From assembly GCA_035650475.1 (NCBI GenBank), contig DASRHP010000009.1:174545-238544 (forward strand): a stretch of DNA of 64,000 nucleotides, given 5' to 3'. The notes beneath the pieces are model-generated. The model was given only the letters and a program-made list of their open reading frames with translations, was not told the DNA's origin and searched no databases. Source of the DNA: Candidatus Binataceae bacterium (GTDB lineage Bacteria; Desulfobacterota; Binatia; Binatales; Binataceae). Position numbers and translations under genes: made by a program. Positions 14,913-59,500 of the stretch are shown here, in pieces. Within the stretch, counting starts at the first letter, position 1. Each line of letters starts with the position of its first letter.

Positions 14913-15797
14913 TTACAGCTTGGCGGCGGGCTCGACCCATGCGCGCGCCGCCTCCTCGACCCGCTCGGCCGCTTCCTCAACCGTGCGCGGCGCGCGCACG
15001 TTGACGATTACGACCTCGTCCACCCCGGCGTCGCGGTAGCGCTTGAGATCGTCGGGTGAGACCGGCTTGGTGTAGGGCGAGACCGCCAGCTCGAGGTCGG
15101 AGCGTTTGCGGCGGCTTGCGCGCAGCAGCTCCTCGATACGCCTGACCTTGGCCGCCGCTTCGTCGGGCGAAAGATTGAAGCCGACCCATCCGTTGCCGTA
15201 CTCGGCGACCCGGCGCAGCGCGGGACCGCTTTCGCCGCCGAAGAAGACCGGCAGCTCGGCGCCGCGCACGGGCTTGGGATAAGAGCGCACGCCATCAAAA
15301 TTGACAAACTCGCCATGGTAGGAGCTGAGCGGCTCGCTCCACAGCCGGCGCATCGCCTCGATATACTCGCGGGTGCGCTGCGCGCGCCGTTCCCACGGGA
15401 TCCCCAGCGCGCGGAACTCCTCTTCCAGCCATCCGATCCCGACGCCGAGGATCACGCGCCCCTGGCAGAGCGAGTCGAGCGTTGCCACCACTTTGGCCAG
15501 CACGAGCGGGTTATGCTCGGGCACCAGGCAGATGCCGGTGGCGAGGCGGATCCTTTCCGTCACCGAGCCCATCGTGCACAGCGCAAGGAACGGATCGGCG
15601 ATCGGTTGATCGGTGGGCCCGGGAAGCCTGGCGTCGCTGCGATAGGGATAGTGCGAGGCGTACTGGTCGAGCAGCACCACGTGCTCGGGCACCCACAGGG
15701 TCGAGAAACCGCAGCGCTCCGCGCTCTGCGCGAACGCCTTCATCACCGCCATCCCGGTCACCCGTCCCGAAACCACTGCGAAGAGTCCAACTTTCAT
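14913..15797 (-). CDS. LLM-class (luciferase-like) F420/flavin-dependent oxidoreductase
   Basis: Luciferase-like TIM-barrel signature (LWVPEHV, GVGIGW). Confidence 0.8.
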   Translation of the reverse strand: MKVGLFAVVSGRVTGMAVMKAFAQSAERCGFSTLWVPEHVVLLDQYASHYPYRSDARLPGPTDQPIADPFLALCTMGSVTERIRLATGICLVPEHNPLVLAKVVATLDSLCQGRVILGVGIGWLEEEFRALGIPWERRAQRTREYIEAMRRLWSEPLSSYHGEFVNFDGVRSYPKPVRGAELPVFFGGESGPALRRVAEYGNGWVGFNLSPDEAAAKVRRIEELLRASRRKRSDLELAVSPYTKPVSPDDLKRYRDAGVDEVVIVNVRAPRTVEEAAERVEEAARAWVEPAAKL

Positions 15798-15889
15798 GCG
15801 TGTATAATCCCTGTGCAAAATAAAGGAGCGCTTCGACTGGGTTCGCGTTGCTCACTTCGCCCACGATGACAGCGAGGATGCTGCCAGCC

Positions 15890-17545: not shown

Positions 17546-18493
17546 TCAGGGTTTGATTACCACGAGCGCGCCCACGGGCAGAAGCGCTTCGAGTTCGTCG
17601 ATCGCGCCGTTATCGACCGAAATGCACCCGGTAGTCCAGTTGATGTTGCCCGAGTTGAGAATCGGGACGTCGGTGCCGTGGATGCCCACGGCGCCCCCTT
17701 CGGGCGTTGCGCGCCCGTGGCTCTTGGGCACTTGGCCCTCAAGCAGCATCTCGTGATAGACCGCGCGGTCGTAGTCGTTGGGGTAATCGATTTGCAGGAA
17801 ATAGCGCCATCGACGGTTGGGGCGCTTGCGAATTATCCGGTAAACGCCCTCGGGCGTGCGCCGGTCGCCCGACCATTCCTTGCCCCCCGCCTCCAGGCTG
17901 CGCCCGAACACCGCGTGATATTTCTTATAGAGGTGGCCCTCGAAATAGACCACCAACTCGTGGCGCGACTTATACGCCATCACCGCCCAGTTGCGGGGGT
18001 CGAGCACGACCGACTGATCCCTGGTGAGGCGCAGCGCCTCCTGCCCTGGTGTCGGCTGCTCAGCCGGGGGCGCTGCGGCCGAGCCATCGCTGGCGCCGGA
18101 GTGAGGAGGCGTGAGGCGGGTGGAGTCCTGAGTCGCGCCGCTCGAAGGAGAGCCGGGGGGAGAGAGGGCGGCGACCCGCGGGGCCGGGGCGCGCGCCGCA
18201 GACGATGTGGCCGGGGCCACCGAGACTGCCGCCGGCAGATTGGGAATCGTGTCCGCGCTTGGAGAAGGCGCCGGCTGCGCCGGCCTCAGCACGGTCCAGC
18301 TGCCGGGCTTCGGGACAGGCGCCGGGGGTTGCACTGTGGCAGCCGCGGCCGCGGACACCGGAGGCGTCATCGCGCCTGAAGCGACCGGCGCCGCGCTCGG
18401 CTGAGCGTCCATCGCCAAGGCGCCGGCCGAAAACGCCGAGCCGAGCATAACCACCCCTATCGCCGCCCCAACCAACCACCGCATCGGCTTCAT
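17546..18493 (-). CDS. L,D-transpeptidase (YkuD domain) with signal peptide and Ala/Pro-rich linker
   Basis: C-terminal HGTD...TTGCISV catalytic motif; ATG at MKPMRW is preceded by GGAGAAAAG. Confidence 0.8.
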   Translation of the reverse strand: MKPMRWLVGAAIGVVMLGSAFSAGALAMDAQPSAAPVASGAMTPPVSAAAAATVQPPAPVPKPGSWTVLRPAQPAPSPSADTIPNLPAAVSVAPATSSAARAPAPRVAALSPPGSPSSGATQDSTRLTPPHSGASDGSAAAPPAEQPTPGQEALRLTRDQSVVLDPRNWAVMAYKSRHELVVYFEGHLYKKYHAVFGRSLEAGGKEWSGDRRTPEGVYRIIRKRPNRRWRYFLQIDYPNDYDRAVYHEMLLEGQVPKSHGRATPEGGAVGIHGTDVPILNSGNINWTTGCISVDNGAIDELEALLPVGALVVIKP

Positions 18494-18630
18494 CGCTTTT
18501 CTCCGCAAGATCTTCATCCTTGCGCGCCATTAATTGTGGAAGAGCTTGGCGGACGGGTCAATTGCTACTAGCTTCGCCATATGGTGCGGCCTGGAGGGCT
18601 TTGGATAACTAGTTGGAATAGGAGCCGCCT

Positions 18631-21859: not shown

Positions 21860-21875
21860 GGTTGAGGTGGTAACG

Positions 21876-23183
21876 ATGGTGGCGAGGCCTGTGGCAGAAG
21901 GGGTGCAAAGGCGGACGGATAACGCAGCGATTCGCGGGTGGACGGCAGCGACATCCTGCACAAAATTATTGGTCCTTGTCCTCGTCGCCGTGCTGATAGC
22001 CCCCGGCGCGGCGCGTGCGACCTCTCATCGAGCTCGTCACAGACGGCACGCTACCCGCCATCATCGCAGCCACTACAGCACGCACGGCGCTCCTTACCAT
22101 GCCCTGCTGCTGGAAGAGGCCGACACCGGCAAGATTCTCTACGACTACAATGGCGGCATCCAATGGCCGCCGGCGTCGATGGCCAAGATGATGCTGCTGT
22201 TGGTCGCCGAGGAGGCGATCCAGTCTGGCCGCGTTCATCTCAACGATCCGGTGACCATATCCGCCAACGCCGCGGTGACCGGCGGCTCGCGCCTTGGGCT
22301 GCTGCGCGCGGGCGAAGTCGTCCCGCTGGGCGAACTGATGAAGGCGGCGCTCATCCGCTCGGCCAACGACGCCGCCGTCGCGGTGGCCGAGAAGGTATGC
22401 GGTTCGACCGAGCGCTGCGTCGCGCTGATGAACGAGCAGGCCAAGGCGCTCGGCATGACCCACACCGTTTACCATACGGTCGAGGGGTTGCCGCCGCGCC
22501 CGCTGCACGACGTTGACACCACCAACGCCTATGACCTTGCGACCCTCGCCCGCGCGCTTATCCATCGCACCAACCTGCTCCAATGGTCGGGGATGGAGAC
22601 CGCGTCCTTCGAGGACGGCCTAGTGATGCTCCATAACACCAATCATCTGGTGGGCCATTTCGAGGGCTGCGACGGGCTGAAGACCGGTTTCACGATCAGG
22701 GCCGGCTTCAATCTGACGGCGACCGCCGAGCGCGGCAACATGCGGCTGATTGCCGTGGTGCTCGGCGCGCCCAACAACTCCGCGCGCTTTGCCCAGGCGG
22801 CGCGCCTGATGGAGTGGGGGTTCGACAACTTTGCGAAAGTCACGGTGCTCAAGCGGGGCGAGTTGCTGCCGGTGCAGGTGCGGGTTGGAACGGACGAGGT
22901 GATGCAGCCGGTGGCGCAAAACACGGTTACCGTGATCGTGCCGAAGAAGGATGCCGCCTCAATTAAAATCGACTATGCGGTGCCGGCCAGCCAGTACGGG
23001 CCGCTGGTCTCGGATCAGACCGTGGGCCATGTTATCGTGCGCGACGGCGGCGAGGTGCTGGCCGAATGCAACGCGGTGTGCCCGTTTCCGGTCGGACAGC
23101 GGCCGGCGGTGCTCAACGCGATGAACGGCTCCGACCTCAACGCCCACAGCGCAACCATGCAGGTAGAGGCGCCCGCAAGGTGA
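21876..23183 (+). CDS. D-alanyl-D-alanine carboxypeptidase (peptidase S11, PBP5/6 family)
   Basis: SMAKMM (SxxK), SAND (SxN) and KTGFT (KTG) motifs; GAGGTGG RBS before ATG 21876. Confidence 0.85.
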   Translation: MVARPVAEGVQRRTDNAAIRGWTAATSCTKLLVLVLVAVLIAPGAARATSHRARHRRHATRHHRSHYSTHGAPYHALLLEEADTGKILYDYNGGIQWPPASMAKMMLLLVAEEAIQSGRVHLNDPVTISANAAVTGGSRLGLLRAGEVVPLGELMKAALIRSANDAAVAVAEKVCGSTERCVALMNEQAKALGMTHTVYHTVEGLPPRPLHDVDTTNAYDLATLARALIHRTNLLQWSGMETASFEDGLVMLHNTNHLVGHFEGCDGLKTGFTIRAGFNLTATAERGNMRLIAVVLGAPNNSARFAQAARLMEWGFDNFAKVTVLKRGELLPVQVRVGTDEVMQPVAQNTVTVIVPKKDAASIKIDYAVPASQYGPLVSDQTVGHVIVRDGGEVLAECNAVCPFPVGQRPAVLNAMNGSDLNAHSATMQVEAPAR

Positions 23184-33244: not shown

Positions 33245-34132
33245 GTGGCGCTCGCATCATCGCTGGTCGGTACGGCGTCGGAGATGGCGGTGACCGAAGT
33301 CGATACCGGATGGACGATGGCATACGCAGCCGGGCTCGGCGACGCCTGGCCGTGCTACCTCGATACGACCCGCGAGCGCGGCGTCGTCGCCCATCCGATG
33401 TTCAGCGTCGCGATCGAGTGGCCGGCGATGCTGCATATCATCCAGGCCCTGCGCGAGGCGGGTTTCTCGCGGGTTGAGATGCTGCGTCGGGTGCATGCCA
33501 CCGACGACGTGATTGTGCATCGGTTGATCCGTCCGCCCGAGCGCCTGCTTACCCGCGCGACGCTGGCCGGGATCGAGCGTCGCGGCGCAGGTGCCTACCA
33601 GCTCACGCGCTTCGACACTTTCGACGAGAACGGCGCGCCGGTATGCACGACGTGGTACGGCAACCTGTACCGCGGGATCGACGTGGCGGGTCCCGACCGT
33701 CCGCCGCTCGACGCCCCCGCTGCGCTTGCGCCATCGACAATGAAGTCCGCGCCGCGTGCGAGCTTCGCGATTCCGATTACGCCGGTTGCCGCACTGGTCT
33801 ATAACGCGGGCGCGCGGCTAGGCAACGCGATCAACATCCACACTGACGCGGCGACCGCCAAAAGCGCTGGGCTGCCCGGACCGATCCTGCATGGCACGGC
33901 GACACTCGCGATGGCGGTTTCGCGCGTGGTCGCGGCCGAGGCCTGCGGCGACCCGACGCGCGTCGCGCGGATCCATGCGCGCTTCGGCGCGATGGTGCTG
34001 ATGCCGTCACAGCTCGAGTTGCGGATCACGGCGCGCGAACGAACCAGCGCCGGCGAGACGGTCTTTTTCGAAGTGATCAATGGCGAAGGCGGCCGTGCGA
34101 TCCGCGACGGCTTCGTGGTCCTGCGCGTGTAG
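33245..34132 (+). CDS. MaoC-like double-hotdog dehydratase/hydratase (paralog A)
   Basis: N- and C-terminal hotdog halves (…GLPGPILHGTATLAMAVS…); GTG 33245 chosen by alignment with paralog B (SSLVGT conserved at nucleotide level). Confidence 0.7.
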   Translation: MALASSLVGTASEMAVTEVDTGWTMAYAAGLGDAWPCYLDTTRERGVVAHPMFSVAIEWPAMLHIIQALREAGFSRVEMLRRVHATDDVIVHRLIRPPERLLTRATLAGIERRGAGAYQLTRFDTFDENGAPVCTTWYGNLYRGIDVAGPDRPPLDAPAALAPSTMKSAPRASFAIPITPVAALVYNAGARLGNAINIHTDAATAKSAGLPGPILHGTATLAMAVSRVVAAEACGDPTRVARIHARFGAMVLMPSQLELRITARERTSAGETVFFEVINGEGGRAIRDGFVVLRV

Positions 34133-34194
34133 CGCTCGTTGGAAGGCCGAGGGAGAAGCGCTGTCCTCCGCTGCATTGCGCGCAGCGATCGCGT

Positions 34195-36048
34195 CTAGTT
34201 CGGCGACGTTATCCAGTCGTGCTTGCGCCAATGGGTCAGCAACGTGTTGAGATAGCTCTGCGCCGCCGCATCCATCCAGCCTCCGGAAAAATGCGAACTC
34301 AGGCAGCCGAACAGCATCCAGTCCTGATTCGTCGCAGGTTTAGCGGTGATTGGATTAAGAAAGTTGTGCGGCGATACCCCACCGGGATTCGACAGATAGG
34401 CCGAAACGTCGGCGCTGTAGGTATTGGGCAAATGATCAGCGCTGGCGAAATAAGGCGCTTGGTCGCCGTTCATGCAAGCGCGCTGGCTGGCGAAACGAAA
34501 CTCGGCCGAGAAAGTGGTCGAGTATTCCATCATCGGCCACGTCATCGTTGCGTAGAAAACCTTGGTCTGAAAATCCCCCCACGACTGGTAGCAGCAGTTC
34601 TCGCAGATGTAACCGAAGAGATTAACATCACGGTTGCGGCACTCGGACAAAGTTGTGCGCCGATCGCCGCCCGAATGCCACTGGACCCAGGAGCCGTTTT
34701 CGCTCGTCGCCTGCGCGCGCACAGCGTCCTCGTCGATTCCGTACTTGCAGGCTGCGAGGCGAAAGATGTTCCAGGTCGATCCGGTGTACTGCCCGGTGAT
34801 TTTGCGGAACCAGAAATCGTTGTTCCAACTCGAGTTTAGATCGAAAGTGTCGATGCCATTAATCAGCCGCTCCAGGTCCGCCGGCCGCGCCCGCGTCTGG
34901 TTGACCGGCGAAGTAATGCCGATATTTAGATCGTCCACGTGGGTGGCCTGGTTCGCGGGAATCGTTTCGTCGGCGTCGCTGAGCATTGCCGCGCATTCGG
35001 CGTCCGTGGGCACGCTCGTACTTCCGTCGGCGAAGCGTCCCGTGCCAGGCTCGGTGCCGAAATGCAGGCTCGGCGTCGGTGCCGGACTGGGGTTTTCGAA
35101 CACGTAGCTGGTGCTGGTAGTGGCGAGAATCACCTCGTTGGGTTGGGCGGAATGGGCTTCGATTTTCACGGTGTGGCGGCCGTTTGGATAATCATCGGTC
35201 GATAGCAATTCCTGGCCGACGCCGAATTCAATCATCGGGCCGCCATCAACGAACATCGCTTCGTGGTTTACGCCGGCACAGGTATCCGAGGTGTGGATCG
35301 CAACGTCGCCGCTGAGCGTGCTGCCGGACGTGGGCGAGATAATGACCAGGCAGATTGGATTTGGCGTCGGCATGGCACTGGGCGTAGGTGTCGGACCATT
35401 CTGGACGTTCAATGTTTCGCTGGCGCTGCCCAACACGCGTGAACCGGGATTGCTAGATTGGCTCGTTACCGTGATCTGGTGGTTGCCATTGACCCATTCA
35501 ACGGTCTGCCAGGTAACCGCGCCGGGAGCGAAGGCGCCAACGAACGTGTTGTCGACGAACAGCGTCTCGAACCACAGGCCCGTGCACGTATCCAACGTTG
35601 ATATCGGGACTATGCCGCCGACTGCCTGTCCCGGCTGGGGCGCCGTTATCCTGATACAGGGCGTGGGCGTAGGCGTCGGGGTTGGCGTGGGAACAGGAGT
35701 TGGCTTGGGAGTCGGCGTCGCGGGTGCGATCAGGTACGCTTTGACCGACGCAGAGCCGAGCAGTCGTCCGCCGCTTCGGAACGACTTGACCGTGAGCGTG
35801 TACGTACCGAGCGCGAAATTGGAGGTCGGCCAGATGAACTGCTGCGGATTCGGTGTCGCGCATCCCAGTCCGGTCTGATTAACGTATGCGCACTCGTACC
35901 AGCGGTTCGTGCAACGATCGGAAAACACGATCGGAACCGACGGTCCTTTAAGAATCAGCGCGCCGTTGGTCGGAGAGGTGATGCGAATACACTGGCCGTG
36001 AGCTGGCGCAGTGCACGTGATCACCATCGCCACGATCGCGATGGCCTG
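34195..36048 (-). CDS. secreted multi-domain protein: three bacterial Ig-like repeats separated by Pro-Thr linkers, then an unrecognised Cys-rich C-terminal domain (~310 aa)
   Basis: Repeats start CIRITSP / CIRITAP / ICLVIISP; linkers PTPTPTPTPTP; GC (~55%) is lower than the flanks; candidate signal peptide KHSALLFSALQRISQAIAIVAMVITCTAPAHG but no in-frame canonical start next to the GGAGGA RBS, so the 5' end is uncertain. Confidence 0.6.
   Translation of the reverse strand, partial: QAIAIVAMVITCTAPAHGQCIRITSPTNGALILKGPSVPIVFSDRCTNRWYECAYVNQTGLGCATPNPQQFIWPTSNFALGTYTLTVKSFRSGGRLLGSASVKAYLIAPATPTPKPTPVPTPTPTPTPTPCIRITAPQPGQAVGGIVPISTLDTCTGLWFETLFVDNTFVGAFAPGAVTWQTVEWVNGNHQITVTSQSSNPGSRVLGSASETLNVQNGPTPTPSAMPTPNPICLVIISPTSGSTLSGDVAIHTSDTCAGVNHEAMFVDGGPMIEFGVGQELLSTDDYPNGRHTVKIEAHSAQPNEVILATTSTSYVFENPSPAPTPSLHFGTEPGTGRFADGSTSVPTDAECAAMLSDADETIPANQATHVDDLNIGITSPVNQTRARPADLERLINGIDTFDLNSSWNNDFWFRKITGQYTGSTWNIFRLAACKYGIDEDAVRAQATSENGSWVQWHSGGDRRTTLSECRNRDVNLFGYICENCCYQSWGDFQTKVFYATMTWPMMEYSTTFSAEFRFASQRACMNGDQAPYFASADHLPNTYSADVSAYLSNPGGVSPHNFLNPITAKPATNQDWMLFGCLSSHFSGGWMDAAAQSYLNTLLTHWRKHDWITSPN
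35661..35728 (-). repeat. tandem Pro-Thr codon repeat (linker PATPTPKPTPVPTPTPTPTPTP)
   Basis: Minus-strand translation of the (ACG CCx) repeats; a second shorter PT linker lies at ~35371..35404. Confidence 0.6.
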
Positions 36049-36527
36049 CGAAATACGCTGCAGGGCAGAGAAGAGGAGAGCCGAATGCTTTGATCCTCCG
36101 TGCCCAAAGCCTACGCGCCGAGCGGCGCCGACAGCGCCAGGGCGAAAGTCACCATAATTCGACTGCGCGGATCGCCAGACAGGACGGGATGGGCCGGCCG
36201 ACCGTATTTCGAATGGGAACACCTGCTGTCGCCCGCGAATATTGAGCACTTCCGGTGCCATCGATACCCTCAGCGAAAGCCTTGGAGCAATGCGGGCAAT
36301 AAAACTAGTTCCTTCCTTGTGGTGTGCGGAAATTGAGACGCCTCTTTGACGAACAGTTACGTGCGGATTGAAACAGTCTGTCGTTCGGCGATTCAGACGT
36401 GAACTGTCGCGGGTGCCCTTGCGGCTCCGACAACAAGGTTGTGGTTCTGACCTATGCACGGCATGGGCAATACGACACTGGGCACGCTGCGATAGACAAC
36501 TGGTGGCGGGCTGGCTAGATATAGCCC

Positions 36528-37409
36528 ATGCCACTGGACTCATCGCTGGTTGGAACCACGGTTGGACCGGTTGAGGCCGAAGTCGACGCGCGCTGGGCGA
36601 TGGCCTACGCGGCGGGAATCGAAGACTACCTGCCGTGCTACCTCGACACGCGCCGCCCGCACGGGATCGTCACCCATCCCGTCTTTCCGGTCTGTTTCGA
36701 ATGGCCGGCGACGTATGCGCTGAGCGCCAGGCTGCGCCAATCCAGCCTGGCGCCGGCCGAGGCGGCGCGCGGCGTGCATGCGACTTACGACCTGACGCTC
36801 CATCGCCCGATTCGCCCGCCCGAGCGCTTGACCACTATGCTCACGCTGGCGGGTGTGCAGCGCCTGCGGCCGGGTGCGTACCAGCTAATGCGTTTCGAAA
36901 CAGTGGACGCCGGGGGCAGGCCGGTATGCACGACTTGGTACGGCAGCATCTATCGTGGCGTCGAGGTGGCGGGTCCGGACCGCCCTGCCGTTGACACCCC
37001 CGCTCTCCCTCCTGCCGGCCTTGCGGGCGACACGCCCCGTGCGGAGATTCCGCTTGCGATTTCGCCCGGCGCCGCTCACGTCTATACCGAGTGCGCGCGC
37101 ATCTGGAACCCGGTTCATACCGACGCAGCGGTTGCTGCGGCCGCCGGGTTGCCGGCGATCATCCTGCATGGCACGGCCACGATGGCGATGGCGGTGTCCA
37201 AGATCGTCACCGCCGAGGCCGCCTGCAATCCCGAGCGCGTGCGACGCGTGCGCGGGCGCTTCGCCGCGATGGTCCTGATGCCGTCGCTATTGACGGTGCG
37301 GATCAACTCGCGCATCGCGTTTGCAGGCGGCGAGTCGATCACCTTCGAAGTGTTCAACGCCGACGGCAGCCGTGCGATCCGCGACGGCTTCGTGGTCCTC
37401 GGCGATTGA
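36528..37409 (+). CDS. MaoC-like double-hotdog dehydratase/hydratase (paralog B)
   Basis: ~55-60% identical to paralog A over its full length (MAYAAGxxDxxPCYLDT…IRDGFVVL). Confidence 0.7.
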   Translation: MPLDSSLVGTTVGPVEAEVDARWAMAYAAGIEDYLPCYLDTRRPHGIVTHPVFPVCFEWPATYALSARLRQSSLAPAEAARGVHATYDLTLHRPIRPPERLTTMLTLAGVQRLRPGAYQLMRFETVDAGGRPVCTTWYGSIYRGVEVAGPDRPAVDTPALPPAGLAGDTPRAEIPLAISPGAAHVYTECARIWNPVHTDAAVAAAAGLPAIILHGTATMAMAVSKIVTAEAACNPERVRRVRGRFAAMVLMPSLLTVRINSRIAFAGGESITFEVFNADGSRAIRDGFVVLGD

Positions 37410-37429
37410 CAGGCGCCGCCGCGGACGGC

Positions 37430-51619: not shown

Positions 51620-52129
51620 TCAGTCGGCGGCGCGCGGCTCGAAGCCGACGAAGCGCATCCGGTCGCCCACCTGTACGCGGTGGCGCGCGCAGAAGCCGCC
51701 GTTAACCTCCAGCACGTACTGCGCGTCGGCGTCGGGGCCGACCGATTGCTTGGAGTAGGGTTCGGCGTTGGCGACGATCCCGACGATCTTCCCCGCAGGG
51801 TCGGCGAAGATCATGTCGAGCGGAATCTCGGTGTTCTTCATCCAAAAGCGCAAGCGGCCGGCGGTGGGAAAGACGAACAGCATCCCGGCATCCTCGTCCA
51901 TGTGATTGCGGTACATCAGTCCCAGCTCGCGTTTGGCAGGAGTCAGCGCCAGCTCGACCCGCAACGCCGCGCGCCGGGCGCCGTCGGGAGCGTCGATCAC
52001 CGTTTGGGGATCGCGTGCGCATCCGGCTATCACGGCGGCCATCACGAGCGCAGCGAGCGCGCGCACGACCGGCGCGCGCGGAAGGGCAGTGCGCGCGTCT
52101 TCGGCCATCGGCGGGGCGGCGTCAGCCAA
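51620..52129 (-). CDS. DUF192-domain protein (lipoprotein-like N-terminus)
   Basis: LFVFPTAGRLRFWMKNTEIPLDMIFAD DUF192 core; IAGC lipobox. Confidence 0.7.
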   Translation of the reverse strand: MADAAPPMAEDARTALPRAPVVRALAALVMAAVIAGCARDPQTVIDAPDGARRAALRVELALTPAKRELGLMYRNHMDEDAGMLFVFPTAGRLRFWMKNTEIPLDMIFADPAGKIVGIVANAEPYSKQSVGPDADAQYVLEVNGGFCARHRVQVGDRMRFVGFEPRAAD

Positions 52130-53327
52130 CTTCGAGCGGCAGCGAGGTCAAGCCGCGCAGGAAGAACGATCCCTTGTATCGAAGCGGCGCCTCCGGCGTC
52201 GCGGGCCGGATGCGCTTGAAGCGCTCGAGCAGCGAGCTGATCGCGATCGCGCCTTCCATCCGCGCCAGCGGCGCGCCGAGGCAGAAATGGATGCCTTCGC
52301 CGAAGGCGAGATGGTCGTTGGGCGAGCGTGCGATGTCAAAACGTTCAGGCTCGGGGAACTGCGCGGGGTCGCGGTTGGCCGCCGCCACCAGCACGAAAAT
52401 CATCGTTCCCGCTGGAATCGTCATGCCCGCGAACTCGGTGTCCTGGCGGATGTGCCGCACGGTCGATTGGACCGGGCCGTCGTAGCGCAGCATCTCCTCG
52501 ACCGCCGACGCCGCCAGCCCGGGTTCGCGGCGCAGGCGTTCGAGCTCGCCCGGATGGCGCGTCAGGGCGAGCATCCCGTTGCCGATCAGATTGGTCGTGG
52601 TTTCATTGCCGGCGAGCAGCAGGATGACCACGAAGGCGATCAGTTCCTCTTCGCTCAGGGTTTCCTCGGAGTCCTCGTGCGCGGCGACCAGCACGCTGAC
52701 GAGGTCGTCGCCCGGGCTGCGCCTGCGCTTTTCGATCTCGGCGACGAAGTAGGCGCGCAGTGCGGCGAAGGCCTCGCGCACCTCCTGCGGCAGCGGCATC
52801 CCGGGTGGCGTGTTGTCGGACTCGATGACCGTGTCCGACCATCGCTTGAACATCGGGTAATGCTCGGGCGGCACCCCCAGCATGTGTGCGATCACCATCA
52901 CCGGCAGCGGATTGGCGAGGTCGGCCATCACGTCGAGTCCGCCGCGCGCGGCGGCGCGGTTGAGCAGCGAGTTGGTGAATTCGCGGATTTTCGGTTCCAG
53001 CTCGCGGATGCGCCGCGGGGTGAAGGCGCGGCTCACCAGGCGGCGCAGGCGGGTGTGGATCGGGGGGTCGGAAAAGACCACGCGCGGCGCGTTGCCGAAG
53101 ACGCTGATCCGCTCTTCGATCAGCGGACTGCGCGGCGGCACGCTGGAGAAATGCTCATGGTCGCGCAGGATCGCGCTGCAATCGGCGTAGCGCGCGACCA
53201 ACGCCATCGGCACGAACACGTTAAGCAGCCGCGGCGGCCCCTGAAACAGCGGTCGGTAGTACGGGTATGGATTGGCGCGGAACGCTTCGTCCCACGGGTT
53301 GAAGTAGATTTCGCCGGCTTCGCTCAT
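52122..53327 (-). CDS. cytochrome P450
   Basis: FGEGIHFCLGAPLAR heme-thiolate loop; EELIAFVVILLLAGNETT I-helix; ATG at MSEAGEIYFNPWDE. Confidence 0.88.
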   Translation of the reverse strand: MSEAGEIYFNPWDEAFRANPYPYYRPLFQGPPRLLNVFVPMALVARYADCSAILRDHEHFSSVPPRSPLIEERISVFGNAPRVVFSDPPIHTRLRRLVSRAFTPRRIRELEPKIREFTNSLLNRAAARGGLDVMADLANPLPVMVIAHMLGVPPEHYPMFKRWSDTVIESDNTPPGMPLPQEVREAFAALRAYFVAEIEKRRRSPGDDLVSVLVAAHEDSEETLSEEELIAFVVILLLAGNETTTNLIGNGMLALTRHPGELERLRREPGLAASAVEEMLRYDGPVQSTVRHIRQDTEFAGMTIPAGTMIFVLVAAANRDPAQFPEPERFDIARSPNDHLAFGEGIHFCLGAPLARMEGAIAISSLLERFKRIRPATPEAPLRYKGSFFLRGLTSLPLEVG

Positions 53328-53450
53328 CGCAGGGCCACCGCCTCCGCGTGTCCAGAAGGGACGTGCCCGTATGTTAGCCCGCCCGGCGGCGGCAAATACA
53401 GCGGGGAGCGCGGCGAGCCGGACCCGCTCCATGTCGCGGACGATCCGCCG

Positions 53451-54307: not shown

Positions 54308-55171
54308 TCACAACCTGGCGAGCACTTCGTTGGCGAGCTTGTCGAGCCCGCGCGTCAGGCCCTCGGCATCGAAGGCCGGCGGCGCGATTACGAGGCGCGA
54401 CACGCCGATATCCTGGAGCTGCCTGACCGTATCGAGGTTGGCGCGGCCGCCGCTGGAAAGCTCGATCGTCGCGGGGTCGCGGCCAGCCTGCTGCGCCTCC
54501 ACGCGCATGATCGCGAATAGCTCCTTGAGCTTTTCGATGTCGCCGATCGCGGGGAAGAAACCGTCGCCGAGGCGGCCGGCGCGGCGCGCGGCGGCCGGCG
54601 AGTGGCCGCCGATATGGATCGGTACGCCGCCCGATTGCGCCGGCTTCGGAAAGCTCTTCACTTCGCGGAAAGCGAAGTGTTTGCCGTGGAAGGTCGAAGT
54701 GGCGTCGCGCCACAACGTGCGCAGCGCCGCGATCGCCTCGTCGGTGCGCCTGCCGCGCTGACGGAAATCCAGGCCCAGCGCGTCGAACTCCTCCTTGAGC
54801 CAGCCGCTGCCGATGCCCAGGATCACGCGCCCGCGCGAGAGCACGTCGAGCGTGGCGACCTCCTTGGCGGTGTAGAGCGGATGGCGCTGGGGCAGGATCA
54901 GGATGCCGGTGGCGAGGCGGATGCGGCTGGTGACCGCGGCGGCGTAGGCGAGCGGAAGCAGCGGGTCGGGGATCGCAACGTCCTCGCCGCCGGGAATCTT
55001 GCCGTCGCGCGAGTACGGATAGGGGGTTTGGTAGTTGTGCGGGATGACGACGTGCTCGACCGTCCACAGCGACTCGAAGCCACGCTCCTCAGCGCTTGTG
55101 GCCAAATGGGCCAGCAGCTCGGGATTGGCGAACGGCCCCGCATTGGCGAACATCAGCCCCAGCTTCATCAT
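54308..55171 (-). CDS. LLM-class F420/flavin-dependent oxidoreductase
   Basis: Luciferase-like signature (LWTVEHVVIP…GIGSGW). Confidence 0.8.
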   Translation of the reverse strand: MMKLGLMFANAGPFANPELLAHLATSAEERGFESLWTVEHVVIPHNYQTPYPYSRDGKIPGGEDVAIPDPLLPLAYAAAVTSRIRLATGILILPQRHPLYTAKEVATLDVLSRGRVILGIGSGWLKEEFDALGLDFRQRGRRTDEAIAALRTLWRDATSTFHGKHFAFREVKSFPKPAQSGGVPIHIGGHSPAAARRAGRLGDGFFPAIGDIEKLKELFAIMRVEAQQAGRDPATIELSSGGRANLDTVRQLQDIGVSRLVIAPPAFDAEGLTRGLDKLANEVLARL

Positions 55172-55342
55172 CGGCTAGCTCCACGCCTCGCGTTGGTTTA
55201 CTGAATCCGCGGGCTTGAAGACTTGTAGCCCAGCTCGCGCGCCGAGGTAAACCGCGCGCGGCGTCGGTGCGAGGCGCCGGAGGTGCGGACGGTCGGGTTG
55301 CGAGCTTGTCCGCAGCGCGCGACAAGGTTAAGTAGAGGAGTC

Positions 55343-56218
55343 ATGGATATCGGCAAATACGGAGTGTGGTTCTTTTACGACGGGATGAGCGCGGAGCAGA
55401 GCGTGGCGTTCGCCCAGAAGGTCGAAAAGGCTGGCTACGGCGCGCTCTGGATCCCTGAGGCGGTCGGGCGCGAGCCCTTCGCGCACGCGGCCTATCTTGC
55501 CGCGCACACCGAGCGGCTGGTCTTCGCCACCGGGATCGCCAACATCTACGCGCGCGACGCGGTGACGATGGCGGCGGCGTCCAAGACCGTGGCTGAACTT
55601 TCGGGCGGCCGTTTCCTGCTCGGCATCGGTGTCAGCCACAAGCCGCTGGTGAGCAATTTGCGCGGCCACAGCTACGACAAGCCATACAGCTACATGCGCG
55701 AGTACCTGCCGCGGATGAAGAGTGCGCTATACCGCGCGCCCGAACCCAAGGAGCGCGTGCCGGTCGTGCTCGCCGCGCTGCATCCCAAGATGCTCGCGCT
55801 ATGCGCCGCCGAGGCCGACGGCACCCATACCTACTTTGTGCCGCCCGAGCATACCCAGAAGGCGCGCGCCGCGATTGGGCCCAAGCCGATGATTTGCGTC
55901 GAGCAGGCAGTGGTCCTTTCCACCGACGCGGCCAAGGCGCGCGCCACCGCCCGCGAGTACATGAAGACCTACGTGCCGCGGCTGCCCAACTACACCAAGA
56001 ACCTCAAGAACCTGGGCTTCGCTGACAAGGAATTCGAGAACGGATGCAGCGACCGGCTGGTCGATGCGATCGTCGCCTGGGGCACCGAGACTCAGATCCG
56101 CGACCGCGTCGAGGCCCATCTCAAGGCCGGCGCAACTCACGTCTGTATCCAGCCGCTGAGCACCGAGAGCGCCACGATGCCCGACGAGCGTGCGATGCAG
56201 GCGCTGGCGCCGCGGTAG
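55343..56218 (+). CDS. LLM-class F420-dependent oxidoreductase
   Basis: AGAGGAG RBS; LWIPEAVGREPF…GIGVSH signature. Confidence 0.8.
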   Translation: MDIGKYGVWFFYDGMSAEQSVAFAQKVEKAGYGALWIPEAVGREPFAHAAYLAAHTERLVFATGIANIYARDAVTMAAASKTVAELSGGRFLLGIGVSHKPLVSNLRGHSYDKPYSYMREYLPRMKSALYRAPEPKERVPVVLAALHPKMLALCAAEADGTHTYFVPPEHTQKARAAIGPKPMICVEQAVVLSTDAAKARATAREYMKTYVPRLPNYTKNLKNLGFADKEFENGCSDRLVDAIVAWGTETQIRDRVEAHLKAGATHVCIQPLSTESATMPDERAMQALAPR

Positions 56219-56224
56219 TGCGCG

Positions 56225-56530
56225 ATGCGGCCGGGCTGGGCCGCCGTGGCCTTCGCCGCGCTGGCGCTGGGCGCGCCGCTGGTGCTCGGATGCGGGCCGT
56301 CGGCCGAGGACAGCGCGGTCCAGGCCGAGGCGGCGGCCGCCCAGGCCCGGGCCGCGGCGGCCAATGCGCAGGCCGCCGCGCTCAAGGCGCGAGCGCAGGC
56401 GCTTGACGCCCAGCGGCGCGCCGACCATGCGGCGGAATTGTTCAGGGCCGCGGCGGCCGAGTTCGACGACGCGGCGCGAAAACTCGCCCAGCACCAGCGC
56501 GAGTTGCAGCAGAACGACGAGCAAAAGTAA
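56225..56530 (+). CDS. hypothetical Ala-rich coiled-coil lipoprotein
   Basis: LGC lipobox after the signal peptide; low-complexity A/Q-rich body; weak support. Confidence 0.4.
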   Translation: MRPGWAAVAFAALALGAPLVLGCGPSAEDSAVQAEAAAAQARAAAANAQAAALKARAQALDAQRRADHAAELFRAAAAEFDDAARKLAQHQRELQQNDEQK

Positions 56531-56593
56531 CGAGCAGAACCCCGCGGCGCGCGGCGCCGACATTTGGCCAACCGGGAAAGGACGGGCGTAGCG

Positions 56594-57238
56594 ATGAAGC
56601 TCTACAACATGAACCTCTCCAACTTTGCCACCAAGTCGCGCATCGCGATCTACGACAAGGGGCTCAACATCGAGATCGCGCCGGTCCCCGGCGGCAATCT
56701 GAAATCGCCCGAGTACCTCAAGATCAATCCGCTCGGCAAAATCCCCGCGCTCGACGCCGACGGCATGATCATCGCCGAGTCCGAGGTCATCAACGAGTAC
56801 CTCGAAGACAAATTTCCCAGCCCTCCGCTGCTGCCCAAGTCGCCCGAAGGACGTGCACGGGTGCGCGAGTTCACCCGCTTCCATGACCTTTACCTCGAGC
56901 CGCCGCTGCGCGCGCTGTTCGGCCAGCTCAATCCCAAAAGTCGCGACGAGAAGGTGGTCAACGAGCGGCTGACCGAGTTCAACCAGCGCCTCGACCAGCT
57001 CGAAGCGATGCTTGCGCCGAGCGGCTTCGCCAGCGGCCCCGACTTCACGCTGGCCGACTGCGCGCTGGCGCCGACGATGTTCTTCGCGACCAACATGCTG
57101 CCCGGCTTCGGCGCCAAACCGCCGCTGGAAGGGCGGCCCAGGCTCGCCGCCTGGTGGGCGCACGTGCAGACGCGCCCGTCGGTCAAGAAGGCGCTGGACG
57201 AGATGGCCGAGGCGCTCGCCGCGATGATGAAGCGCTAG
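56594..57238 (+). CDS. glutathione S-transferase
   Basis: N-terminal thioredoxin-like GST domain (MKLYNMNLSNFATKSRIAIY…KIPALD…ESEVINEYL). Confidence 0.8.
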   Translation: MKLYNMNLSNFATKSRIAIYDKGLNIEIAPVPGGNLKSPEYLKINPLGKIPALDADGMIIAESEVINEYLEDKFPSPPLLPKSPEGRARVREFTRFHDLYLEPPLRALFGQLNPKSRDEKVVNERLTEFNQRLDQLEAMLAPSGFASGPDFTLADCALAPTMFFATNMLPGFGAKPPLEGRPRLAAWWAHVQTRPSVKKALDEMAEALAAMMKR

Positions 57239-57266
57239 GCGAGGCGCGCAAGCGGGGTCGAAACAC

Positions 57267-58337
57267 CTAGCGCGCCGGCGCGGCGGCGCGCGCCTTGGGC
57301 TGCTCCGCCGCGCGTGCCTTGCGCCGAAAGTGTGGGATCACTTCCCTGGCGAACAGGCGCATGCTCGCGCGCACCTTTTTCGGATCCAGCCCCGGCAGCG
57401 ACATCCCGAGCGCAAGATGGGTATGCCCGGTGTAGCGCTCGAGCATCTCGATCGCGTCGTCGGGGCTCCCGATGATCAGCGGCTCGCCCAGAAAACGCGT
57501 GTCGTTGAGCTTGCGCAACTCGCCCACCGGCGGGACCTGCGCGAACCGCTCGTCGCCCGGGACGTCGGCCGCCTCCGCGATCCACTGCCCGTACTTTGCC
57601 ATCAGGTGATGGATCGCGTACTCGGCGTCGTCCCACGCGCGGTCACGGCGCGGCGCGATATAGCCGAAGCGCAGCTGGGCGATGTTGAAATGGTCGGGGT
57701 CGCGGCCGGCGGCGCGCAGCGCCTCCTTGTAAATCTCGGCCTGGCGCGGACCGGTGCCCGCCAGATGGTAGCCGTTGCGCGCGGCGCGCTCGGTCGCGCT
57801 GCGGCTGCGCGCGCCGATCCAGATCGGAATATGCGGCTGTTGCGCGGCTTTGGGATACAGCGTCGCGTTGCGCACGGTGTAGTGTTTGCCCTCGAACGTC
57901 ACGTTGTCCTCGGTGAACAGGCGCCGGATTATCGCGACCCCCTCGCGCAGGCGCGCGGCGCGCTCGTTGCGCGGGACGTTGAAGCCGTCGAATTCCTGCG
58001 GCCGGTAACCTTGGCCCAGCCCGAGGTCCAAGCGCCCGCCCGACAGCACATCGACGGTCGCCGCCGATTCGGCCACGTGCAGCGGGTGGTGCAGCGGCAT
58101 CAGCAAGACGAAGGTCCCGATGCGGATTTTCCTCGTGCGTGTGGCGATCGCCGCCGCCAGTGGAAGCATCGCCGGCGAGTAACCGTCCTCGACGAAGTGA
58201 TGCTCGGTCAGCCAGATGGTGTCGTAGCCCATCTCCTCGGCCTCGACCGCGAGGTCCACGTGGCGGCGATAAAGCTCCGAGTAGGAGAGTTCATTGCGGT
58301 CGGAATTGCGGAAGGATTCGAGCAGCCCGAAGTTCAT
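57267..58337 (-). CDS. LLM-class flavin/F420-dependent oxidoreductase
   Basis: IWLTEHHF…LGLGQGY signature. Confidence 0.8.
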   Translation of the reverse strand: MNFGLLESFRNSDRNELSYSELYRRHVDLAVEAEEMGYDTIWLTEHHFVEDGYSPAMLPLAAAIATRTRKIRIGTFVLLMPLHHPLHVAESAATVDVLSGGRLDLGLGQGYRPQEFDGFNVPRNERAARLREGVAIIRRLFTEDNVTFEGKHYTVRNATLYPKAAQQPHIPIWIGARSRSATERAARNGYHLAGTGPRQAEIYKEALRAAGRDPDHFNIAQLRFGYIAPRRDRAWDDAEYAIHHLMAKYGQWIAEAADVPGDERFAQVPPVGELRKLNDTRFLGEPLIIGSPDDAIEMLERYTGHTHLALGMSLPGLDPKKVRASMRLFAREVIPHFRRKARAAEQPKARAAAPAR

Positions 58338-58468
58338 CTCGCTCCTCCTTGGCGATGCGGCCGGGGCGCGCCGATTTCATCGGCACAATACCGCGAAGGC
58401 GCAACTATGCGTCAACAGCTTGCGCATTGCGGAGTCGCCGCCATCCGCGCGATAAATAAACAGCCGCC

Positions 58469-59500
58469 GTGAAGCTCTCGGTAATCGATCAGTCGCCGGT
58501 CTCCGCCGGATTCACTCCGGCCGCCGCGCTGCGCAACTCGATCGAACTCGCCCGTCTGGCCGACCGCCTCGGCTACGAGCGCTACTGGATCGCCGAGCAT
58601 CACGCGATCGAGGCGCTCGCGAGCCCGGCGCCGGAAATCCTCATCACGCGCGTTGCCGCCGAAACCTCGGGCATCCGGGTCGGCTCGGGTGGCGTGATGC
58701 TGCCCCATTACAGCCCGCTGAAGGTGGCCGAGGTCTTCCGGATGCTGCATGCGATGTATCCGGGGCGGATCGATCTCGGGCTGGGGCGCGCCCCGGGCGG
58801 CACAGCGCTCGATTCCTACGCGCTCCAGCGCGACCGCAGCCAGCAGCGCACGGTGGACGACTTTCCCCAGCAGCTCGTCGAGCTGCTGGCCTTCCTGGGC
58901 CGCGATTTCCCGCCGCGCCATCCGTTCAGCCGCATCCACGTCTCGCCCGACATGCCCGGCGCGCCCGAGGTCTGGCTGCTCGGCTCGAGCCCGTGGAGCG
59001 CCTCGGCGGCGGCGCAGCTCGGATTGCCGTACGCCTTCGCGCACTTCATCGATCCCCATCCGACACGCACCGCGCTCGAGCATTACTTCGCCCGCTTCAC
59101 GCCGTCAAAGTATCTGCCGGTGCCGCGCGCGATCCTTGCGCTGGGCGTGGTCTGCGCCGAGACGCGGGCCGAGGCCGAGCGGCTGCTGATGAGCGCGCGC
59201 CTGTTCCGCCGCCGTATCCGCCAGGGCGATGTCCGTCCGATTCCGACCCCGGAGGAGGCAATCGCGGAGTTGGGCGCGGAGCCGCGGCCGGCGGCGAGCG
59301 AGTCCGGCGAATGGCCGCGTTACGTAGTCGGCGCGCCCGAGGCGGTGCGCGACCAGTTGATAGACATGGCGAGCGTGCTGCGCGTGGAGGAGCTGATGGT
59401 GGTGACGGTCGTGCACGACCATCGTGCCCGCATGCGCTCCTATGAGCTGCTCGCTGAGGCCTTCAGCCTCCCGCCGCGTCCGCCGCGCGTCCAACGATGA
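58469..59500 (+). CDS. LLM-class flavin-dependent oxidoreductase (MsnO8/YhbW-like)
   Basis: MKLSVIDQSPV…YWIAEHH…GLGRAPG signature; GTG start. Confidence 0.8.
   Translation: MKLSVIDQSPVSAGFTPAAALRNSIELARLADRLGYERYWIAEHHAIEALASPAPEILITRVAAETSGIRVGSGGVMLPHYSPLKVAEVFRMLHAMYPGRIDLGLGRAPGGTALDSYALQRDRSQQRTVDDFPQQLVELLAFLGRDFPPRHPFSRIHVSPDMPGAPEVWLLGSSPWSASAAAQLGLPYAFAHFIDPHPTRTALEHYFARFTPSKYLPVPRAILALGVVCAETRAEAERLLMSARLFRRRIRQGDVRPIPTPEEAIAELGAEPRPAASESGEWPRYVVGAPEAVRDQLIDMASVLRVEELMVVTVVHDHRARMRSYELLAEAFSLPPRPPRVQR

Follow-up and report, generated by a model that had tools for sequence, protein, structure and literature searches.

Why does a single gene of low guanine-cytosine (GC) content stand between two paralogous genes on the core chromosome of an uncultured bacterium, and what might its product do? 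We consider this question for a stretch of 64,000 nucleotides from Candidatus Binataceae bacterium (GenBank assembly GCA_035650475.1, contig DASRHP010000009.1, positions 174,545 to 238,544; hereafter, the window), in which a minus-strand gene lies between two genes for MaoC-like hydratases, MaoC1 and MaoC2. The sequence bears out the gene that a preliminary description of this DNA had placed there, with a stop-free frame of 782 codons running from 36543 to 34195. The explanation that, taken as a whole, we regard as probable is that about 2.3 kb of foreign DNA with one gene entered the short spacer that separated an older tandem pair of MaoC-like hydratase genes, and that this gene would encode an exported modular enzyme composed of a Sec-type signal, three Big_7-type immunoglobulin (Ig)-like modules, Pro/Thr linkers, and a 298-aa catalytic domain. 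The catalytic domain would be disulfide-rich and lysozyme-like (SLT/GH23-type), with Glu455 as the general acid, and the enzyme would cleave beta-1,4 bonds of an N-acetylated amino-sugar polymer outside the cytoplasm. Residues of the protein are numbered here from the codon at 36063 (residue 1); the frame counted from that codon comprises 622 codons, is intact, and keeps all family-invariant residues. Coordinates of the individual features are collected in Table 1.

Relationship of the C-terminal domain to lysozyme-like enzymes

The preliminary description had given the C-terminal domain as about 310 aa, Cys-rich, and of no family that it could recognise. The domain comprises 298 aa with eight Cys and is matched directly by no family model, in keeping with that account, but it can be placed through its relatives. 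Its homologues amounted to 56 proteins in a word-indexed search and to 413 representative clusters at E <= 1e-3 in an exhaustive search, 116 of them at E <= 1e-10. Where the sources name these proteins at all, the names are "hypothetical protein" or plainly wrong, and a literature search for the family found nothing on this unnamed SLT-like group. Among 118 members of the wider family, five match Pfam SLT (best 1.4e-9), two match SLT_3, and two match Glucosaminidase. With an SLT cut-off of 21.3 bits, P0189 scores 38, P0182 21.7, and P0195 21.6, and in all three the match (profile positions 2-46 or 2-49) spans exactly the conserved core of the family, IIQWAACKWG...(A/V)xES.W...GD...G(L/I)xQ(V/I)K. 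In a BLASTP comparison of the window domain with P0182 (E 1e-20), ATSENGSW aligns with AVQESDW, so that E131 of the domain, which is Glu455 of the protein, falls on the Glu of 'QES', inside the SLT match of P0182 at 260-313 and equivalent to the SLT catalytic Glu. A Glu occupies this position in 113 of the 118 family members. One of these relatives, P0189 (573 aa, from outside the window), carries two tandem catalytic domains after a Big_7 module; its name at JGI, 'autotransporter family porin', looks wrong.

Conservation extends well beyond the Glu. Near-invariant positions include T106, K116, G118, W135, G142-D143, Q175, K177, P186, T192, R204, C206, G209, Y225, C263, G270, W272, Y280, and W293, together with C33, E42, N47, and N64 in a conserved N-terminal extension of about 100 residues. 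The wider family shares the motif S-x-G-[IL]-x-Q-x-K, which reads SWGDFQTK in the window protein and whose Gln is kept in 114 of 118 members. No equivalent of the AYNxG motif was identified, the family having STAFNxDY and the window protein STTFSAEF. Comparison with the gene of P0002, the closest homolog, gave a proportion of nonsynonymous differences (pN) of 0.157 against a saturated proportion of synonymous differences (pS) of 0.706; the gene is under purifying selection, and the catalytic domain, with a nonsynonymous distance (dN) of 0.127, is more constrained than the Ig part.

The structural neighbours of the domain are goose-type lysozyme (6.7), Slt70, and the phiKZ gp144 transglycosylase; chitinases of GH23 and GH19, a cellulase of GH124, and a mannanase of GH134 are also among them. 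The domain is modelled with the lysozyme-like helical fold and an active-site cleft. The core that it shares with these neighbours covers 115-155 of 298 residues, and the relationship is therefore a distant one. Taken together, sequence and fold comparisons show the C-terminal domain to be an enlarged, disulfide-rich, and strongly divergent member of the lysozyme-like (SLT/GH23-type) superfamily and not a new fold. The gene is an unannotated new variant within this superfamily, carried on Big_7 modules. The earlier proposal of a possibly novel catalytic domain is accordingly not upheld, since remote members match Pfam SLT and Glu455 aligns with the SLT catalytic residue; as to whether the domain maps to a well-known family, it does so at the superfamily level, not by a direct match to a hidden Markov model (HMM).

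Among characterised enzymes, the closest likeness is to the family-1 lytic transglycosylases (SLT PF01464, GH23: MltC, MltE/EmtA, MltF, Slt70, and EtgA), with which the domain shares a helix-terminal Glu, the context (E)(S/N)xxW, and, further on, a hairpin and a G-x-x-Q-x-K segment that may correspond to GLMQ; remote family members exceed the Pfam SLT cut-off over this core. The window domain differs in being about twice the size, with the N-terminal extension of about 100 aa (C33, E42, N47, N64), a C-terminal helical extension (G262-C263, G270, W272, Y280, W293), and eight Cys, and in having no direct HMM match, an Asn after the Glu, and no recognisable 'AYNAG'. Polysaccharide loci, moreover, often house members of this family, in place of the cell-wall or secretion-system loci of the SLT enzymes. 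Goose-type lysozyme (GH23) acts with Glu73 and Asp86. The near-invariant G142-D143 pair of the family, 10-12 residues after the Glu, presumably recalls this Asp86 and, as a lead, would hint at hydrolysis over lytic transglycosylation. The sequence similarity to goose-type lysozyme is not significant, and the position equivalent to Asp97 is a Lys in this family. Tse3, a muramidase effector of the Pseudomonas aeruginosa type VI secretion system (T6SS), is a further point of comparison from which the window gene differs in lacking a T6SS, immunity gene, or PAAR/VgrG context, and its product in carrying Ig modules behind a putative Sec-type signal; the match that Foldseek gives to Tse3 is not significant.

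Ig-like modules

From N- to C-terminus, the product consists of a signal-peptide-like segment, three Ig-like modules joined by Pro/Thr linkers, and the helical C-terminal domain, and its AlphaFold2 model, built on a 51-sequence alignment, has a mean predicted local distance difference test (pLDDT) score of 81.5. The three Ig-like repeats with Pro-Thr linkers already described for this gene are confirmed by internal alignment, by Pfam, and by the model. They begin with CIRITSP (residue 25), CIRITAP (136), and CLVIISP (238), and their pairwise identities are 43%, 31%, and 22%. Repeat 2 matches Pfam Big_7 (PF17957) with E 4.2e-7 and 30.9 bits, above the cut-off of 24.1, whereas repeats 1 and 3 are recognised only through internal similarity and the AlphaFold2 model; in that model each of the three forms a beta domain, with pLDDT values mostly 80-95, in keeping with Big_7-type modules. 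Modules of this type precede the catalytic domain in 21 of the 118 family members. The Cys that opens each module probably forms a disulfide bridge with another Cys some 25 residues further on, and the modules would serve as spacers or binding modules.

Insertion between the MaoC paralogs

The two flanking genes, previously estimated to encode proteins 55-60% identical, differ from that estimate in no respect, with an identity of 56% and with both the FAS1_DH_region and the MaoC_dehydratas domain in each. MaoC2 was used to scan 185,579 species genomes, which yielded 80 loci, each taken with 10 kb on either side. The closest genomes are metagenome-assembled genomes named Candidatus Binataceae, Binatia, or "uncultured delta proteobacterium". 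In the 14 closest loci, MaoC2 is 75-81% identical, and in 13 of them, as well as in locus L077, a MaoC1 ortholog (73-82% identity) lies directly upstream of it, with a spacer of 59-159 bp as measured in 13 loci. None of the loci contains a homolog of the inserted gene within the 10 kb taken to each side. More distant Binatia have a single MaoC copy, and the MaoC duplication is therefore older than the insertion.

The edges of the insert can be located by comparison with the same relatives. A 38-nt motif, GATGGACATTCGCCGCCCAAGCTCTGTAGAAATATCCT, abuts the MaoC2 ATG and is conserved in 13 relatives (L003-L016, directly upstream of position 10001). It reads like a promoter, with a putative -35 element TGGACA and -10 element TAGAAA, so near the ATG that the MaoC2 mRNA would be leaderless. 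Since a diverged copy of the motif is kept at 36491-36527 of the window, the right edge of the insert lies near 36490; the left edge falls within 34133-34197. The non-coding parts of the insert show no similarity to the remaining window or to the fetched loci, and for the 62 bp that follow MaoC1 the predicted folding is no better than that of shuffled sequences.

The inserted stretch also stands apart in composition, although the dip from about 69% to about 55% GC reported earlier, while real, was overstated in size. The gene has 59.7% GC, the upstream 427 bp 58.1%, and the lowest 400-bp windows 56.0%, against about 68% around it, 64-72% in 20 neighbouring genes, and a window mean of 67.2%; the 34-36 kb interval is the lowest-GC part of the entire window. 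GC content at third codon positions (GC3) is 0.72-0.73 in the gene versus 0.80-0.89 in all 20 neighbours, that is, 7-16 points lower, and by host-codon score the inserted gene is the worst of the 21 genes; its composition is foreign. GC1 (0.52) and GC2 (0.53) are low in all family members, and amino-acid composition therefore explains part of the dip. At ten other loci, family genes have a GC content within about 3 points of their own locus, which indicates that the protein family as such is not GC-poor relative to its hosts. P0002, the closest homolog (75% amino-acid identity), lies on a contig of 52% GC throughout, and the contigs of the nearest homologs have 52-55% GC; DNA similarity between the window and P0002 (71.6%) is confined to coding sequence.

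A single-gene horizontal insertion is well supported because relatives have the MaoC genes adjacent, family genes match the GC of their own loci, and P0002 lies on a 52%-GC contig. The preliminary description had proposed an acquisition of foreign DNA between the MaoC paralogs, and the synteny and composition of the locus both agree with it. Phage origin was considered and is unlikely, with one weak relative among 2.9 million viral contigs, and a metagenome scan for close relatives returned nothing useful. In the P0010 locus (L085), a family gene lies between IS110-family and IS3-family transposase genes and beside a PIN/RHH toxin-antitoxin pair; this locus shows that the family can occur in mobile regions. 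The neighbourhood of the MaoC genes is otherwise fluid. In relatives (L003 10880-12175; likewise L004-L016), a gene for a class-III zinc alcohol dehydrogenase of about 370 aa (FrmA/AdhC-like) follows MaoC2 and is absent from the window at 37410-37429, and synteny with relatives does not extend left of MaoC1; the window has rpoN-hpf-ptsN-rapZ-VTT there.

Translation start and upstream region

The start codon had been called unclear despite a GGAGGA sequence and a signal-like segment, and the sequence bears this out. The segment has a hydrophobic core and a putative AHG-Q cleavage site, the AlphaFold2 model has an N-terminal helix at residues 2-17 within it, and homologs such as P0002, P0003, and others have a canonical signal peptide directly before the first Ig Cys. 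In the window, no canonical start codon precedes the segment: from GGAGGA (36094-36099) to the hydrophobic segment, none of the frames offers an ATG, GTG, or TTG, and in the DNA alignment the ATG of the P0002 and P0003 genes corresponds to CAG (36058-36060). The CTG at 36061-36063, one codon upstream of this CAG, has no Shine-Dalgarno sequence before it. With no canonical start at the position used by the homologs, the window copy may be poorly expressed or not expressed.

The frame remains stop-free for 160 codons further upstream, at 36064-36543 on the minus strand, for which a naive estimate of chance occurrence is about 0.3%. These codons have no coding GC3 signal (in-frame values in Table 1, versus 0.73 in the gene), and the upstream region has no similarity to the loci of relatives, the rest of the window, or the P0002 contig. 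That they form a conserved N-terminal extension was rejected, given the missing GC3 signal and the lack of any homolog with such an extension. An alternative start is the ATG at 36259-36261, which has GAGGG 5 nt upstream, equal to the ribosome-binding sites of neighbouring genes, and from which JGI calls the gene (contig Ga0484956_0001229 of 65.8 kb, sample 3300045256, a soil-type metagenome). Initiation there would add an Arg-rich extension of 66 aa before the hydrophobic segment, and these 66 codons could be kept open if this ATG is now the start. We place initiation at ATG 36261 just short of an even chance, hold initiation at CTG 36063 to be doubtful, and consider poor or no expression of the window copy rather unlikely.

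Scans for promoters and terminators on the strand of the gene found none, including no sigma-70-like promoter. A sigma-54-like motif, TGGCAC-N5-GTGCT, at 36245-36260 on the minus strand, which is oriented towards the gene and overlaps ATG 36261, was rejected, as two such motifs were found in the window versus 1.4 expected and the motif is not conserved upstream of P0002. In a second sample, a 99.9% identical copy of the gene encodes the same protein.

Weighing the explanations

Several results weigh against the reading of this DNA as a foreign insertion that encodes an exported lysozyme-like enzyme. Pfam, NCBIfam, and PHROG models gave no match to the C-terminal domain of the window protein, and Pfam SLT (PF01464) gave none to the protein at E up to 0.01 or up to 1. 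PDB sequences yielded chance matches only, both to the domain in phmmer and to the 118-member family profile in hmmsearch, and Foldseek found nothing in PDB or BFVD at E <= 0.001, the best match being Tse3 at E 0.036. Alignment of the family profile by hhalign with sequences of goose-type lysozyme (GEWL) and Slt70 was not significant; the best local alignments of that same comparison put E131 on the catalytic Glu. In the motifs themselves, Glu455 is followed by Asn in place of the Ser of the SLT 'ES' motif, and the GLMQ motif of SLT corresponds to WGDFQ. No integrase, transposase, tRNA, convincing terminal repeats, repeated DNA, target-site duplication, or RNA family was found at the insert, which holds one gene and does not qualify as a mobile element. 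The lack of a canonical start where the homologs start belongs here as well. The characterised structural neighbours all act on peptidoglycan or chitin, and peptidoglycan is therefore the default: we give about an even chance to a peptidoglycan substrate, with the enzyme as a muramidase or lytic transglycosylase, and hold an exopolysaccharide to be a tentative second candidate.

A decaying or silent acquisition from which no functional exported protein is made any longer would account for the CAG in place of the ATG of the closest homolog, the unsupported CTG before it, the want of any usual start codon after GGAGGA, and the absence of a sigma-70-like promoter or terminator; against it stand the intact 622-codon frame with every family-invariant residue, the ATG at 36261 with a ribosome-binding site as good as those of its neighbours, and the nearly identical copy in a second sample, and we judge such decay unlikely. 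That the gene is instead ancestral at the locus and was lost in the relatives, its low GC stemming from a composition rich in Ser, Thr, Asn, and Pro, would agree with GC1 and GC2 being low in all family members and with a neighbourhood that varies (the alcohol dehydrogenase gene present in relatives only, synteny lost left of MaoC1), but GC3 too lies 7-16 points under every neighbour, family genes elsewhere match the GC of their hosts, the nearest homologs sit on contigs of 52-55% GC, and 13 relatives share a short spacer with the same conserved motif at its end, which together leave ancestry at this locus most improbable. As for function, the preliminary description had left the choice between a surface or secreted effector, a hydrolase, and an adhesin. 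The architecture, with its three Ig-like modules and Pro/Thr linkers, is a typical one for surface proteins, and the degenerate 'ES' and 'GLMQ' motifs of the window copy would suit a dead lysozyme-like domain that serves as a glycan-binding module in an adhesin or surface protein without enzyme activity. All the near-invariant residues are kept, however, among them the catalytic Glu, the GD motif, Q175, and K177, and dN of the domain is low. A predicted exported hydrolase on Ig-like modules thus agrees with one part of the earlier account, while a pure adhesin is unlikely because the catalytic Glu is conserved, and a non-enzymatic role seems highly unlikely overall.

The remaining alternative concerns the family as a whole, which may be part of Wzx/Wzy/Wza-type polysaccharide systems and not a group of peptidoglycan enzymes, acting there either as a glycanase that trims or releases exopolysaccharide or by making gaps in the cell wall for the export machinery; on this view the gene in the window would be an orphan of the family whose product is secreted, decorated with Ig modules, and perhaps active on the matrix of other cells. 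Ten genomic contexts of family members were considered. P0014 (L092) overlaps by 4 bp with an upstream GT4 gene at the end of a Wzc-Wza-Wzx-Wzy-Ugd-GT4-GT4 cluster, P0006 closes a Wzx-GT2-Wzy-Ugd-GT4-GT2 cluster, in P0011 a GT2 domain is fused to the SLT-like domain, and P0021 (L093) lies among genes for Wzy, a polysaccharide deacetylase, a Pel9A-like beta-helix protein, and GT2. P0024 (L086) and P0023 (L094) head a cluster with Wza, a Wzz-like protein, an ExeA-like ATPase, and amino-sugar genes, and two further family members contain a Wzy_C domain. The P0005-P0020 group (42-49% identity), which includes P0006, P0011, and P0014, is nearest to the window domain after P0002 and P0003. On the other side, no polysaccharide genes lie near the window copy, which is thus outside any polysaccharide locus, and such a context is also lacking for P0010 (transposases), for P0015 and P0034 (MlaD-type ABC genes), and for P0039 (nothing telling). 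Some of the linked contexts are orthologous to one another, and there are therefore only about 3-4 independent links to polysaccharide assembly; every characterised structural neighbour, moreover, is active on peptidoglycan or chitin. Glycoside hydrolases and lyases are encoded in exopolysaccharide loci, as PslG, BcsZ, PelA, AlgL, and PgaB illustrate, and many family members resemble them in being last in, or fused to, Wzx/Wzy/GT clusters; the folds of these enzymes are unrelated to the window domain, and exopolysaccharide activity of this SLT-like family is putative. To our knowledge, a role in polysaccharide assembly has not been described for GH23-type folds. It is possible, and we put it forward tentatively, that this unnamed family of at least 400 clusters belongs natively to Wzx/Wzy/Wza assembly, operonic with glycosyltransferases or fused to GT2 or Wzy, where its members would trim or release polymer or open the cell wall, and that the window gene would be a horizontally captured, Ig-decorated offshoot. 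The foreign gene for an exported lysozyme-like enzyme, with peptidoglycan as its default substrate, is the explanation that we retain.

Features and genomic setting

Table 1. Positions of the inserted gene, its parts, and its flanks in the window (AF2, AlphaFold2)
Feature	Position	Strand	Basis or remark
MaoC1, double-hotdog MaoC-like hydratase, left flank	33245..34132	+	Pfam FAS1_DH_region, MaoC_dehydratas
Inserted gene	stop codon 34195-34197, coding to at least 36063	-	frame analysis
C-terminal helical domain, predicted catalytic, divergent lysozyme-like/SLT-type, 8 Cys	34198..35091 (residues 325-622, 298 aa)	-	
Glu455 codon (E131 of domain), predicted general acid, motif ATSENGSW	34699..34701	-	alignment to SLT
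Ig-like repeat 3	35098..35352 (residues 238-322)	-	AF2 all-beta 239-322; 31% identical to repeat 2
Pro/Thr linkers	35353-35403 and 35659-35727	-	AF2 pLDDT below 50
Ig-like repeat 2, Big_7 type	35404..35658 (residues 136-220)	-	Pfam PF17957; AF2 beta domain 137-220
Ig-like repeat 1	35728..35991 (residues 25-112)	-	43% identical to repeat 2; AF2 beta domain 26-112
Signal-peptide-like segment (L/M)QRISQAIAIVAMVITCTAPAHG, predicted cleavage between AHG and QC	35995..36063 (residues 1-23)	-	starts at CTG 36061-36063
Low-GC (58.1%) upstream region of insert, stop-free in frame, without coding signature	36064..36490	-	GC3 0.59, 0.47
Host sequence kept at right edge of insert, diverged motif copy GATAGACAACTGGTGGCGGGCTGGCTAGATATAGCCC	36491..36527	+	alignment to relatives
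MaoC2, right flank, 56% identical to MaoC1	36528..37409	+	Pfam FAS1_DH_region, MaoC_dehydratas

The gene content of the window is that of core chromosomal genes, among them those for a class-I aminoacyl-tRNA synthetase, aroB, aroC, pyrG, kdsA, lptC/lptA, rpoN, hpf, ptsN, rapZ, methylmalonyl-CoA mutase, propionyl-CoA carboxylase, and a class II ribonucleotide reductase, and the window belongs to the core chromosome of an uncultured member of Candidatus Binataceae. The neighbours of the inserted gene are those for MaoC, VTT/DedA, rapZ, and an acyl-CoA dehydrogenase. An Rfam scan of the whole 64 kb, including the upstream region of the gene, found no family at gathering score. Elsewhere in the window, a YkuD-type L,D-transpeptidase (17546-18517, minus strand) and a PBP5-type D-Ala-D-Ala carboxypeptidase (21867-23183, plus strand) represent cell-wall remodelling genes of the host, 11-17 kb from the insert and not linked to the inserted gene. 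Five luciferase-like monooxygenase paralogs, one at 14913-15818 and the others at 54308-59500 (four within 5 kb), and a cytochrome P450 gene at 52122-53432 fit the alkane- and lipid-oxidising lifestyle described for Binatota.

Implications for the family and for Binatota

For the protein, the analysis turns an unknown Cys-rich domain into a testable prediction, that of a glycan-cleaving enzyme with Glu455 as its catalytic residue. For the organism, it provides a clear case of one gene gained horizontally within Binatota, an uncultured phylum. Established concepts are unchanged. The by-product of greatest interest is that a sizeable family named by no Pfam or NCBIfam model turns up repeatedly in exopolysaccharide loci; because the family recurs in such gene clusters, a family model would improve annotation, and it might also uncover an additional accessory step of polysaccharide export or enzymes of a new class that degrade matrix or wall.

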